Below, one piece after another: positions 25,083 to 38,781 of a DNA stretch of 64,000 nucleotides. The DNA lies in NCBI GenBank assembly GCA_963828255.1, contig CAWHDZ010000040.1, positions 64,001 through 128,000 on the forward strand. Direction: 5' to 3'. The stretch is from an uncultured delta proteobacterium (GTDB taxonomy: Bacteria; Myxococcota; Myxococcia; Myxococcales; Anaeromyxobacteraceae). The notes beneath the pieces are model-generated. The model did not search any database and had not been told where the DNA came from. It worked only from the letters and a program-made list of their open reading frames with translations. The number at the start of each line of letters is the position of its first letter. The stretch's first letter is position 1. The position numbers were made by a program, and so were the translations under genes.

Positions 25083-25159
25083 CGCGGGGTGGAGCAGCCA
25101 GGTAGCTCGTCGGGCTCATAACCCGAAGGTCCCAGGTTCAAATCCTGGCCCCGCAACCA
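25083..25159 (+). tRNA. Initiator tRNA-Met (CAT)
   Basis: CGCGGGGTGGAGCAGCCAGGTAGCTCGTCGGGCTCATAACCCGAAGGTCCCAGGTTCAAATCCTGGCCCCGCAACCA; C1:A72 mismatch, GGG/CCC anticodon stem, encoded CCA; TTGACC-N17-TAGATA upstream. Confidence 0.97.
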
Positions 25160-25169
25160 GTAAAACCAG

Positions 25170-25203
25170 AGGCCTCGTCGGTGCTTACCGGCGGGGCCTT
25201 TGT
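25170..25203 (+). terminator. Terminator-like hairpin after tRNA
   Basis: AGGCCTCGTCGGT-GCTT-ACCGGCGGGGCCT then TTGT. Confidence 0.65.
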
Positions 25204-25213
25204 GCTTCCGACT

Positions 25214-26329
25214 TCACGTTCCGTCAACCGAGACCGAATCGGGACCAGGCGCGGACTCCGTCGCCTGGACCTCCTCGGCCCCCTTCCGGGTGCGGTTCAG
25301 CATCGCGACCGCAGCCTTGAGATCCTGCTCCTCGACGATGTTGTAGCGCTTGAACACTGCCGCGGTCCGGTGGCCGGAGAAGCGGGCCACCACCGACTCG
25401 GGAAGGCCGCTGCGGCGCGCCAGGGTGACGAAGGAGCGCCGCAGGTCGTGGACCCAGACGTCGGAGAGCCCGGCGGCGTCCCGGGCCCTCTCCGCGGCGC
25501 CCTGGATGTCCTGCCAGGGCCTGCCGGTGGCCGGGTTCACGAAGACGAACTCGGCGTGGAGCAGCCGGGGCTGCTCGGAGAGGGACTTCAGCACCCGTTC
25601 GGTCAGGTAGACCACGCGGGGCTCGTCGGTCTTGGTGTCCTCGGCCTCGAGCCGGACGGCGCCGGCCTTGAGGTCGATCTGCGACCAGCGGAGGTTCAGG
25701 ACCTCGCTCTTGCGCATGCCGGTGTCGAAGGCGACGAGCAGGATGGGCCGGAGCCACGCCTCGGCCTTCGCCGAGAGGCGCTGGAAGGCCTCCTCGTCGA
25801 GGACCACCCGCCGCACGTTCGGCACCCGGAGGAGCTTCACGCGGGCGACGGGGTTCTCGGCGAGCCGGCCGCAGGCGGCGGCGTAGTTGAGGAGGCGCTT
25901 CAGGAGCTCCACCTCGCGATCCAGCGTCGCCGGGGACGGTGCCTCGCCGCGCCTGGATGTCTCGGCCTGCCGCTTCATCCGGTACTCCTCGACGTCGCCG
26001 CGGGTGAGGCGCGAGGCGCGCTTGTCGCCGAGGAGGCGCACGAGGTGCGCTCCCCGGCCCACGTCGGACTGCCAGGAGTCGTTGTCGCGCTTCGTGATCG
26101 GCTCGTACTCGGTCCAGAGCTGCCGCACGGTGGCGGTCGGCTCCTTCTTCCGGTCGAAGAACCGGCCCTCGTACGCTTCGGCGAGGAGCTTGTGCTCGAG
26201 TGCCTGTGCCTGCTCGCGCGTGGGGATGCGGCCACGCTTCAGGCGGCGAACCGTGCCGTCCGGCAGCGTGACGTAGGTGTCCACGCGCCAGCGGACCTTG
26301 TTTCGTGCCACGTACTTCGAGACGCCCAT
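25214..26329 (-). CDS. Tyrosine recombinase/integrase
   Basis: SD AAAGGAGG before ATG 26329; TGMRKSE (R), HDLRR, SGHRT, KRY catalytic set intact. Confidence 0.95.
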   Translation of the reverse strand: MGVSKYVARNKVRWRVDTYVTLPDGTVRRLKRGRIPTREQAQALEHKLLAEAYEGRFFDRKKEPTATVRQLWTEYEPITKRDNDSWQSDVGRGAHLVRLLGDKRASRLTRGDVEEYRMKRQAETSRRGEAPSPATLDREVELLKRLLNYAAACGRLAENPVARVKLLRVPNVRRVVLDEEAFQRLSAKAEAWLRPILLVAFDTGMRKSEVLNLRWSQIDLKAGAVRLEAEDTKTDEPRVVYLTERVLKSLSEQPRLLHAEFVFVNPATGRPWQDIQGAAERARDAAGLSDVWVHDLRRSFVTLARRSGLPESVVARFSGHRTAAVFKRYNIVEEQDLKAAVAMLNRTRKGAEEVQATESAPGPDSVSVDGT

Positions 26330-26367
26330 CGTGTTCCTCCTTTCACGTGGGCAGACGGGCGTCGTCG

Positions 26368-26590
26368 TCATCCCTGCAGGATAGCCGCGGGATCGGACAG
26401 GCGGGAGGGGTGGCGGGCCAGCTCGGCGTCGAGTTCGGCCGCGGTGGAAGCGGAGGCGGCGGGCGCCGAGGCGATGGGCGGGGACGATGCCGCGCCGGAC
26501 GGCCTGGTAGAGCGCGGCCCGCGTCCGGTAGCCCAGGTAGGCGGTCGCCTCGTCGGCGGTCATCCAGGGGGCGTGGTGGGGCGTGGTCAC
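26368..26590 (-). CDS. Excisionase-like HTH protein (one-base frameshift near 26440)
   Basis: WMTADEATAYLGYRTRAALYQAVRRGIVPAHRLGARRLRF; expected continuation AELDAELAR lies in another frame, ending at TGA 26368. Confidence 0.75.
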
Positions 26591-26661
26591 GGCCTCTCTT
26601 CCCCAGGCGACCGCGGGCGGCGGGCCCAGGACGACCTCGTTCAGAAGCCGGTAGAAGGCGT

Positions 26662-37185: not shown

Positions 37186-37433
37186 GTCCCGGACGGAACG
37201 AGGATGGGCTCGATGCGCTCGTGGCCGACGACCCGGTAGGCGTAGGCGAGGCAGGCGAGGACGTCCTCGCGCTCCATCCACGGGTAGCCGGACACGACCG
37301 TCTCGATGGTGTCGCCTGCGGCGAGCATGCCGAGGACGTGCTCGACCGCGAGCCGATGGCCGCGGATGATCGGCTTCCCGCCGAAGATCTGCGGGTCGTA
37401 CGTGATGCGCTCGAGCAGGGCCTTCTCGTCCAC
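37182..37433 (-). CDS. DUF433 antitoxin (copy 1)
   Basis: RITYDPQIFGGKPIIRGHRLAVEHVLGMLAAG...YPWMEREDVLACLAYA. Confidence 0.92.
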   Translation of the reverse strand: MDEKALLERITYDPQIFGGKPIIRGHRLAVEHVLGMLAAGDTIETVVSGYPWMEREDVLACLAYAYRVVGHERIEPILVPSGT

Positions 37434-37520
37434 GGTGGACCTCGACCGAGAGCATATCCCGGCCTGGCGAGCAGAGCAGGGGGCTCGCCGTGCCTGCCGC
37501 TGGCGGCGTAGGCTATCCGG

Positions 37521-37766
37521 ATGGCGCCCCACGAAGACGCGATCCCAGTCTCGAGCCAATGCGAACTCTGCAGCGAGAAGAACTTCGATACCCACTGGAT
37601 CGACGTCGGGCCAGAAGGGGAGGGCATCTCCTGCGTCACCGTGGACGTGACGCTTCGGCTCTTCCCGGCACACCGGGCGCGCCTCCTCCAGGCACTGGGA
37701 CGGGCGGATTCCGAGAGGGTCGAGCCAAACCGCGAGATGAAGGCCTGGGGCCCCCCGGGTTCCTGA
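37521..37766 (+). CDS. Small hypothetical protein with CxxC
   Basis: MAPHEDAIPVSSQCELCSEKN; homologous start MAPNEDAASFTSHCELCREK at 43474. Confidence 0.4.
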   Translation: MAPHEDAIPVSSQCELCSEKNFDTHWIDVGPEGEGISCVTVDVTLRLFPAHRARLLQALGRADSERVEPNREMKAWGPPGS

Positions 37767-37804
37767 CTCGTAACGAAGCGCAGACGGTGACGCACCAGGG
37801 TCCG

Positions 37805-38233
37805 TTAGCCGCCTCGCCTCCTCAGCTCGACGAGGAAGTCGCCGGGACGGAGAATCCGGACCCCCGCGACCTCGGCGAGATCGAGAAGATCGCGGTCCAG
37901 GCTGACGACCCACTCCGCCTGCCCCCCGATCGCGGCCGCCAGGACCATGTCATCCGCAGGGTCGCGGGCCACGAGTCCCTTGGCCTCACCGGCCAGGACT
38001 CGATCCGCCACGGCGACGACCGTCGATACGAAGGCCTGTCGATTCACCTTGGCGGAGTAGCGAACGACCTGCGGGTACTCGACCGCCCGCCGGTACTCCT
38101 CCTCGAGCGCGTCGGTGACGACCAACCGAACGGCGCCGGCGGCGGCCGCCGCCAGGATGATGCGCGACGCCGAGGCGGGGTTCGGGGTCACGAGCGCCGC
38201 CACCAGGACCGACGAGTCGAGGACCGTCCTCAC
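37805..38233 (-). CDS. PIN-domain toxin (TIGR00305-like)
   Basis: RTVLDSSVLVAAL, LEEEY, RDPADDMVL..A, VSLDRDLL. Confidence 0.9.
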   Translation of the reverse strand: MRTVLDSSVLVAALVTPNPASASRIILAAAAAGAVRLVVTDALEEEYRRAVEYPQVVRYSAKVNRQAFVSTVVAVADRVLAGEAKGLVARDPADDMVLAAAIGGQAEWVVSLDRDLLDLAEVAGVRILRPGDFLVELRRRGG

Positions 38234-38493
38234 CTCGCCCGGCTCCGGGCCATCCGGGCCACGGCCTCACCCACGCGCTCCGCGTCGGCGTCGTCGGGGC
38301 TCCGGCCAGGGGGCAGCCTGTCGAGCATGGCCCGCAGGTCCTCCCGGGCCCGCGCCGCGATGACCGCCCGGGCCTTCTCCTCGGCTGCCTGCCGGAGGAA
38401 CTCGGATGGGCGCTTGCTCTCCAGGCGGGCGGCCTTGCGCACGAGGTCGCGCAGCGCCTTGGTGGTCCGGTAGGTCTCGACGGTCTTGGGCAT
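38230..38493 (-). CDS. RHH antitoxin (DUF1778-like)
   Basis: YRTTKALRDLVRKAARLESKRPSEFLRQAAEEKARAVI; GTGA overlap with the PIN gene. Confidence 0.75.
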   Translation of the reverse strand: MPKTVETYRTTKALRDLVRKAARLESKRPSEFLRQAAEEKARAVIAARAREDLRAMLDRLPPGRSPDDADAERVGEAVARMARSRAR

Positions 38494-38733
38494 GGAGGGC
38501 TCCGTGTTACGTTTGTCCCTATCCTAGCATGGAGAGCCGACGGAGGGCGTCCGCGGAGCTCTCGACCGACCTTCGGGTAGATTACCCGTCGAAACCGGGA
38601 CCGAAACGCGACCAGAATCACGTTCGATCCGGTCCTCCGGTGTCGACTCGCGTCGACTCGCCGGATGCCGCAACGCCCCAGCCACACTGAGAAATCACAA
38701 CAACGACGCCCGTCTGCCCGTTGCCCTTTTCGA

Positions 38734-38781
38734 GGGCTCATAACCCGAAGGTCCCAGGTTCAAATCCTGGCCCCGCAACCA
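38734..38781 (+). repeat. att site: 48-bp copy of tRNA-fMet 3' part
   Basis: Identical to 25112-25159 (GGGCTCATAACC...GCAACCA). Confidence 0.95.

Follow-up and report, generated by a model that had tools for sequence, protein, structure and literature searches.

A compact element in the initiator tRNA gene of an Anaeromyxobacteraceae genome, with features of an integrative and mobilizable element

The window analysed here is a stretch of 64,000 nucleotides (contig C40, positions 64001–128000; CAWHDZ010000040.1) of a 4.3-Mb, 40-contig assembly from an uncultured member of the Anaeromyxobacteraceae, labelled G000 here. Inserted in its sole tRNA-fMet gene is a 13.6-kb element that we regard, on balance, as an integrative and mobilizable element (IME) from a conjugative-element family of the Anaeromyxobacteraceae. 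The insertion is bounded by perfect repeats and a related genome contains the corresponding empty-site junction; its genes belong to recognizable families, its four-gene core recurs in other genomes, integrative and conjugative elements (ICEs) occur among its relatives, and next to the core is a hairpin that covaries. The element was presumably placed at the tRNA by its own tyrosine integrase.

The insertion in the initiator tRNA gene

The target gene is a tRNA-Met(CAT) at 25083–25159 (+), called by ARAGORN and scoring 63.8 bits in the Rfam tRNA family. A C1/A72 mismatch and GGG/CCC next to the anticodon loop are the marks of initiator tRNAs. Both are read in this gene, the GGG/CCC pairs lying in its anticodon stem, and a single tRNA in the assembly bears them, one of four with a CAT anticodon among 60 in total.

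Bounding the insertion are the perfect 48-bp attachment (att) repeats reported in the preliminary description of this DNA, confirmed here at 100% identity: the attL core (25112–25159, +), which is the 3′ 48 nt of tRNA-Met as regenerated by the element, and the attR core (38734–38781, +). A 23-nt pattern of the att core matches three times in the window, compared with none in 100 shuffles. Together with the attR core, a conserved arm (38546–38733) makes up the right end of the element (38546–38781, +); this arm is 80% and 84% identical to sequence beside the repeats of two related loci, L015 and L017, which are themselves repeat-bounded and shorter (~8.0 kb and ~6.6 kb, respectively).

Located directly after the tRNA in genomes of the genus is a 44-nt, hairpin-containing stretch, of which the element has its own copy, X (25160–25203, +), 97% identical to 40559–40602. 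The attP arm of the element thus appears to bring a copy of the downstream stretch with it, so that after integration the tRNA would retain both its 3′ end and that stretch. To the right of attR is a further segment, E2 (38782–40537, 1.76 kb), enclosed by 21-bp repeats (38761–38781 and 40538–40558) and containing a GT87 glycosyltransferase gene (39101–40555, −; Pfam). Because it is flanked by these repeats and has no integrase, E2 is read as a remnant. The third att-like repeat (40538–40602, +), made up of 21 nt from the 3′ end of the tRNA and the native downstream stretch X′, forms the outer edge, which sets the whole insertion relative to one genus genome, G060, at ~15.4 kb.

Empty sites were searched for by comparing the left flank and tRNA with 14 genomes of the genus, G000 included. 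In G056, an intact tRNA is joined straight to window 38782–38855, the 74 nt right of attR, at 96% identity, precisely the joint that a site free of the element should show. The G060 tRNA, with the 44-nt X behind it, is followed by ~75 bp and then by window sequence from 40603 onward, the flank that encodes a HAD protein (96.4% identity); the final codons of an int gene survive in this ~75-bp spacer. An integrase 93–99% identical to that of the element is present at the same tRNA in three other genus genomes, two (G062 and G059) have integrase fragments only, and in G064 the 48 nt plus X are present three times, 10.2 and 5.4 kb apart, as a tandem array. Genomic islands at tRNA genes integrate into the 3′ end of the RNA gene and regenerate that end, with elements or their remnants stacked behind it. 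The site described here shares 3′-end integration, regeneration and stacking with such arrays, and differs in the attP that copies the 44-nt downstream hairpin stretch.

The core genes and the R1 hairpin

The core genes were delimited on the minus strand by codon-position GC content and Pfam matches. In order, they encode RHH111, Replic_Relax, an HTH_17 excisionase (Xis) and a tyrosine integrase (Int). The gene order proposed in the preliminary description is borne out, whereas Replic_Relax and Xis prove to be frameshifted in this copy and the ribbon-helix-helix (RHH) label of the first protein draws on weak fold matches. The integrase (25214–26329, −; 371 aa) is intact, as had been proposed. 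It matches PF00589 (2.7e-21) and phrog_1 (7.5e-55), has AGGAGG ahead of its ATG and visible R, HxxR and Y residues, and is 99% identical to the L015 copy. The excisionase gene (about 26368–26563, −) has HTH_17 and TIGR01764 matches below cut-off, and was aligned with its L015 counterpart, a 73-aa protein scoring 7.9e-08. The Replic_Relax gene (about 26588–27756, −), recognized by its Pfam family (PF13814, MOBC-type), alignments and a fold model, scores 32.2 bits against a cut-off of 25.3, with paralogues at 50–62 bits.

Compared with L015, extra bases are seen in the window at three places: two near 26765–26769, one near 26605–26610 and one near 26437–26441. Owing to the first pair, Replic_Relax loses its frame over the last ~60 codons, and the true C terminus can be read in the Xis/Int frame; the base near 26437–26441 shifts Xis over its final ~27 codons and joins xis in frame to int. 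Related populations were surveyed in Logan contigs from 20 candidate runs (best word share 0.56). Contigs of other populations that bridge 26765–26769 lack the two extra bases in all three covering runs; for the first two insertion sites, every bridging contig (two studies) is without the extra bases, and for the third the base is missing in all bridging contigs of two runs and in part of the depth of a third. Judged by L015 and these contigs, the three insertions appear private to this assembly, and are either recent decay or an assembly error.

The fold of Replic_Relax was examined in an AlphaFold (AF2) model of an intact homologue 96% identical to it (predicted local distance difference test score, pLDDT, of 80). 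Residues ~5–140 are predicted to form a winged helix similar to those of MarR, PadR and HxlR (Z-score of 8.2 and root mean square deviation of 3.5 over 80 aligned residues; Foldseek probability 1.0). Following it is an α/β domain, for which matches to Can2, FokI and MunI were weak (E 0.008–0.12), while a whole-model VIA search was dominated by winged-helix matches and barely probed this central region; a pair of helices in a domain of ~60 aa forms the C terminus. A profile search of the PDB with Replic_Relax returned a chance match only. PF13814 is the Pfam counterpart of the MobC/MOBC relaxase class in the available text of PMC5357655, and the family has been assigned to the PD-(D/E)XK group (PMC3424549). 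MOBC relaxases are described as having a restriction-endonuclease-like PD-(D/E)XK domain and an N-terminal winged helix, and a covalent DNA intermediate has never been seen for them, as far as the accessible sections of two sources extend (PMC12857230, PMC5714925). Present here are the match to the Pfam profile and, in the predicted model, the N-terminal winged helix-turn-helix.

RHH111 (27774–28109, −), the 111-aa product of the first gene in the core operon, belongs to an uncatalogued Myxococcota family, with no match in Pfam, NCBIfam, PHROG or PADLOC. Four helices and an N-terminal segment of low confidence are seen in its monomer model (pLDDT 77). The best Foldseek rows are RHH proteins (CdbA, Arc, CopG and NikA), weak at E 0.4–5, and its neighbours in the ESM Atlas are unnamed Myxococcota clusters; the RHH label is a plausible one on the model. 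Upstream (28110–28165, −), by our own reading of the sequence, are TTGACG-N17-TATAT, which resembles a promoter, and a palindrome of 9 bp that covers the ribosome-binding site and start codon. The TTGAC motif recurs at an equal distance before RHH111 in many relatives; a consensus promoter and terminator scan of 25000–29000 returned no site. The spacer between the RHH111 start (28109) and the stop of a LysR gene (28779) measures 669 bp, in agreement with the gap of ~650 bp described previously.

Within this spacer is R1 (28336–28484, −), a 148-nt branched hairpin with a perfect outer stem of 17 nt and an inner stem of 22 nt, recognized by conservation, folding and covariance. Homology of the backbone to L015 (95.7%), L017 and a third locus, L018, extends from the tRNA through RHH111 and ends at 28484, the outer edge of R1; R1 is the distal end of the conserved backbone. 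A covariance model built on four sequences and searched in 30 sources found R1 in 21, with 19 matches at full length and E ≤ 1e-10 (the L015 copy lies at 6005–6152). In the 19 best matches, 92.3% of cells are paired (39–52% after sliding of the partners) and compensatory changes on both sides are seen in 21 of 45 pairs (2–7 after sliding), in an alignment fitted to the covariance model, which favours such statistics; none of 500 shuffles reached the observed pairing values. Rfam gave only miRNA-like matches below threshold. In this genome R1 is found at RHH111 loci only; in some cases a toxin–antitoxin (TA) pair or other cargo lies between it and RHH111. R1 may be an origin of transfer (oriT) or another single-strand element.

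Compact and conjugative relatives

The family had been described as one residing at tRNA-fMet, a limit that does not hold, as the same core is also found at tRNA-Pro, tRNA-Asp and tRNA-Arg. This genome alone encodes four Replic_Relax paralogues (~40% identical) and six copies of RHH111, the others being 57–62% identical to the window copy. The two genes are adjacent at four loci (tRNA-Met, tRNA-Asp, tRNA-Pro and one decayed locus); at two more, RHH111 is accompanied by Int or Xis without Replic_Relax, and both of these keep R1. Of 24 loci fetched from other genomes, 22 have RHH111 immediately upstream of Replic_Relax and two are cut by a contig end; a tRNA gene (Met, Pro, Asp or Arg) is located just past the integrase in 11. 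Integrases of different tRNA target classes share only ~25% identity.

Of 92 genomes in the bacterial family, 51 encode RHH111 (up to 13 places per genome) and 37 encode Replic_Relax (up to five). Compact cores, with RHH111 within 50 bp upstream, account for 36 of the 54 Replic_Relax places; at seven a coupling protein is 1.7–3.3 kb away, and 11 are of other kinds. The preliminary description had raised the prospect that homologues occur only as fragments of larger ICEs or prophages; the seven places linked to a coupling protein agree with that in part, yet the 36 compact ones do not. Strong RHH111 matches number 96 places, with Replic_Relax adjacent in 34 and not adjacent in 62. In a sample of 301 genomes from the phylum, strong matches to RHH111 are limited to the Anaeromyxobacteraceae (28 of 39), with weak ones in eight genomes of that order and none outside it.

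In three genomes (G002, G075 and G029) RHH111 and Replic_Relax bracket a type IV secretion system (T4SS) set, a coupling protein and a primase, in the order RHH111, TrbC-like, VirB4/TraC-like, DUF2381, TrbI–kinase fusion, type IV coupling protein, DnaG primase and Replic_Relax. A scan of 60 open reading frames (ORFs) in these ICE regions brought up no further relaxase family, and neither ends nor integrase were seen in the DNA fetched for the G002 ICE. Given this bracketing, the compact element reads as an ICE minus everything between RHH111 and the relaxase, which is the usual picture of an IME. In a FastTree phylogeny calculated without support values, the three ICE copies of Replic_Relax are on deep branches, a weak hint that the compact forms were derived from ICEs. 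VirD4-type coupling proteins are encoded in 18 of the 92 family genomes, and T4SS-bearing relatives in the same bacterial family could act as helpers.

Coupling-protein linkage is also seen in a Myxococcus plasmid (NZ_CP123279.1), in which Replic_Relax is 4 kb from a TraM-recognition coupling protein and RadC and DUF932 are also encoded. MOB-suite typing in PLSDB lists both this plasmid and NC_002119.1, a record titled CloDF13, a MOBC prototype, as ‘non-mobilizable’; elements with a MOBC-type relaxase are therefore likely to be undercounted. Among the five ORFs scanned in NC_002119.1, the gene table of which is incomplete, there was no match to PF13814.

Three further loci are of separate interest. 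In G075 (L045:10438–13194) and G029 (L047:15193–17487), a TrbI/VirB10-like domain beside DUF2381 has an N-terminal Ser/Thr protein kinase, a fusion that by its domains appears to be a T4SS component of an unusual type. In L012 (G000:C8:140000–159999), positions 4514–16781, an integrase comes immediately after RHH111 and Replic_Relax is missing, and further on are a helicase/TnsA-like protein, two DNA methylases, DUF932, RadC and Rad52; its gene content suggests a relaxase-less relative with leading-region-type genes.

Transfer, cargo and meaning for the family

An IME, as defined in PMC5704250, has its own integration and excision module with att repeats, has no mating-pair formation system of its own, carries a relaxase and/or an oriT, and is moved in trans by a conjugative helper element. 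The window element has an intact int, the repeats and the G056 junction, together with a frameshifted Xis. T4SS families were found neither among the 52 ORFs of the region (Pfam) nor beside 15 related cores. As for the relaxase and oriT, there is a PF13814 match above cut-off in a frameshifted gene of a clade in which the Asp of the PD motif is absent, and R1 is a candidate oriT.

Several observations weigh against an IME. The private insertions truncate Replic_Relax and alter Xis, and with the genes for its relaxase and excisionase frameshifted, this copy is probably unable to move on its own any longer. The canonical PD Asp is A or G across the tRNA-Met clade (10 of the 15 aligned rows), while it is kept in the paralogues and the ICE-like relatives, and E-x-E is invariant in all aligned rows; this replacement makes nuclease activity doubtful for the Replic_Relax of the clade. 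The family is also annotated as a replication or (predicted transcriptional) regulatory protein (PMC3424549). In the tRNA-Met clade R1 points the same way as the core, elsewhere the opposite way, and it has no match in the 10 ICE loci fetched. No trustworthy attB or attP joint was found in Logan contigs of related populations (four runs, 24500–41500), where the joints seen are noisy, come from paralogous sulfatases and other organisms, and are uninformative on excision. Finally, VirD4, VirB4 and TrwB have no match in this genome, and VirD4 has none in the 14 genus genomes, which are draft or metagenome-assembled; on these assemblies, neither this genome nor its genus offers an evident helper.

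Some of these points would also fit an immobile relic, the leftover of a conjugative element minus its transfer genes, fixed as an island and kept for its cargo and TA genes. The frameshifts in this copy and the missing helper are joined here by stops or split genes in relatives G043, G067, G063, G020, G085 and G083, by the integrase fragments of G062 and G059, and by the last int codons in G060. We nevertheless judge such a relic unlikely: the 36 compact copies are at several tRNA genes with integrases ~25% identical, single genomes have up to five Replic_Relax and 13 RHH111 places, reading frames are open in most copies, and the site is polymorphic inside one genus, with one exact junction. 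The same four-gene set together with R1 would not survive independent decay.

The missing PD Asp and the lack of conjugation genes in the genus also speak for an integrating episome, in which Replic_Relax would be a replication initiator or regulator and R1 an origin, and which would spread not by conjugation but by some other means such as transformation. Both replication and relaxation appear in the name of the Pfam family, which has been called a predicted transcriptional regulator (PMC3424549), and the gene follows a DnaG primase in the ICE relatives. A coupling protein is nevertheless 1.7–3.3 kb from Replic_Relax in 7 of the 54 places, Replic_Relax is the only relaxase candidate found in the three ICE regions, and PF13814 is placed among the MOBC relaxases in the literature, as represented by the available parts of PMC5357655 and PMC12857230. 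An episome of this kind seems to us rather improbable.

Taken as an IME, the element would be excised as a circle by Xis and Int through recombination across the 48-bp core, the attP of the circle comprising the tRNA 3′ end and the copy of the downstream hairpin stretch. Replic_Relax, with its predicted winged helix and putative PD-(D/E)XK-type domain, would act on the circle at an oriT, possibly R1, and the RHH-like protein may serve as a DNA-binding accessory factor or regulator. A related ICE would supply the coupling protein and T4SS that carry the DNA to a new cell, where Int would insert it into the tRNA of the recipient. A bolder version, which we hold only tentatively and consider doubtful, is that self-transmissible ICEs, IMEs and relaxase-less islands form a three-tier system in the Anaeromyxobacteraceae and have RHH111 and the strand-specific hairpin R1 in common as a minimal module for transfer; R1 would be a new oriT type or a single-strand initiation element where backbone meets cargo, and the PD-less Replic_Relax of the tRNA-Met clade a non-catalytic adaptor to the helper machinery.

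Beyond R1 is the cargo. A LysR regulator gene (−) is followed by genes for a sulfatase, a HAD hydrolase and a second sulfatase (+), together spanning 28779–34309 (Pfam), and by three ORFs (34335–36482, +; 202, 256 and 157 aa) with no family match in Pfam, NCBIfam, PHROG or PADLOC. At the right end (36581–38493; Pfam) are RHH_5 with MazF (+), DUF433 (−) and PIN_3 with a TacA-like protein (−). The sulfatase cargo is as previously described, whereas the three TA loci reported with it amount to two complete pairs and a DUF433 gene without a partner among the ORFs scanned. No defence family was found by PADLOC among 12 proteins scanned. Near the 15 related cores, cargo comprises TA, restriction, sensor, sulfatase and transport genes, with T4SS or phage genes in none.

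As had been noted, no capsid, terminase, T4SS or coupling-protein family is found in the element by Pfam, PHROGs, NCBIfam or PADLOC. The mobilisable island suggested in the preliminary description stands as a recurrent integrative element without its own transfer genes, for which T4SS-bearing relatives in the family could be the helpers; its other suggestion, a satellite, is not supported. A phage satellite resembling a phage-inducible chromosomal island and packaged by a helper phage would, like this element, be of small size, sit in a tRNA gene and carry int and xis while lacking structural genes. Pfam and PHROG reveal no primase–helicase, packaging, capsid-redirecting or phage-repressor family, however; PHROG matches among nine proteins scanned are confined to the integrase, a DNA-binding/Xis family and DUF433, and the relatives are elements with a T4SS and not prophages, making a satellite highly improbable. 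An actinomycete integrative and conjugative element was considered and rejected, with no FtsK/TraB-like translocase and no FtsK_SpoIIIE-type match among the 52 ORFs scanned.

Several features of the surroundings were also recorded. A second DUF433 TA-like module lies outside the element at 42744–43432, with ~90% DNA identity to 37161–37563, and another is at L015:652–1283; a MazEF module is located just beyond the repeats of L017. DUF433 and MazEF modules seem to move between neighbouring islands. The chromosomal HAD gene right of the insertion (40631–41689) is a paralogue of that of the island (31649–32716; 35% over 317 aa). A tRNA-Arg(TCT) called by ARAGORN at 56016–56112 (−) is 97 nt long, ~20 nt above the usual length. 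Elsewhere in the genome (G000:C23:73650–75041), another CAT tRNA has a distant tyrosine integrase (24% identical to that of the element) within 400 bp downstream, and may mark a further integrative element.

The kind of element described here is already known, and its layout is standard. The relaxase–excisionase–integrase order is the usual compact IME arrangement in streptococci, including those of the PF13814/MobC class (2017, PMC5357655, available text). No paper naming the architecture was found, as the preliminary description had anticipated, yet the layout itself is not new. The streptococcal PF13814 IMEs, as presented in the available part of PMC5357655, share with this element the gene order beside att, the lack of mating-pair genes and the PF13814 relaxase, and differ in having a serine integrase and their own VirD4, whereas here there is a tyrosine integrase and no coupling protein. 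Additional here are the conserved RHH-like gene, the 148-nt structured element and the myxobacterial host. With TraX of pAD1 and MobC of CloDF13, as described in the accessible sections of PMC12857230 and PMC5714925, the protein shares a predicted N-terminal winged helix and a putative restriction-endonuclease-like domain. The likeness, drawn from descriptions and not from sequence alignment, extends to the coupling-protein linkage in the ICE and plasmid relatives of this element; the tRNA-Met clade differs in the missing PD Asp and the C-terminal helical domain of ~60 aa. The oriT2 of pAD1, with a large inverted repeat of ~140 bp, would parallel R1.

Relaxase-less ‘iOriT’ islands that hitch on conjugative elements have been described in six nosocomial species, according to the available text of a recent preprint (Ares-Arroyo et al. 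2026, bioRxiv 10.64898/2026.01.13.699239), and the 62 of 96 RHH111 places without an adjacent Replic_Relax resemble them, R1 being here a candidate oriT only. With these 62 places, and with R1 retained at two of the kind in this genome, the relatives would fit, by analogy, a graded series from ICE through IME to minimal island.

A literature search found no description of ICEs or IMEs of Anaeromyxobacter, and the family, RHH111, R1 and the Asp-less relaxase clade appear to be undescribed in the literature searched. Myxobacterial mobile elements beyond phages and a few plasmids have hardly been described, and here is an abundant family carrying sulfatases, restriction systems, sensors and many TA genes. 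For MOBC relaxases no covalent intermediate has been seen and biochemistry is scant, and a natural series from the full conjugative element to the minimal island is suited to testing the roles of MOBC-type proteins. The element may also find use as a tRNA-targeted integration tool for Anaeromyxobacter.

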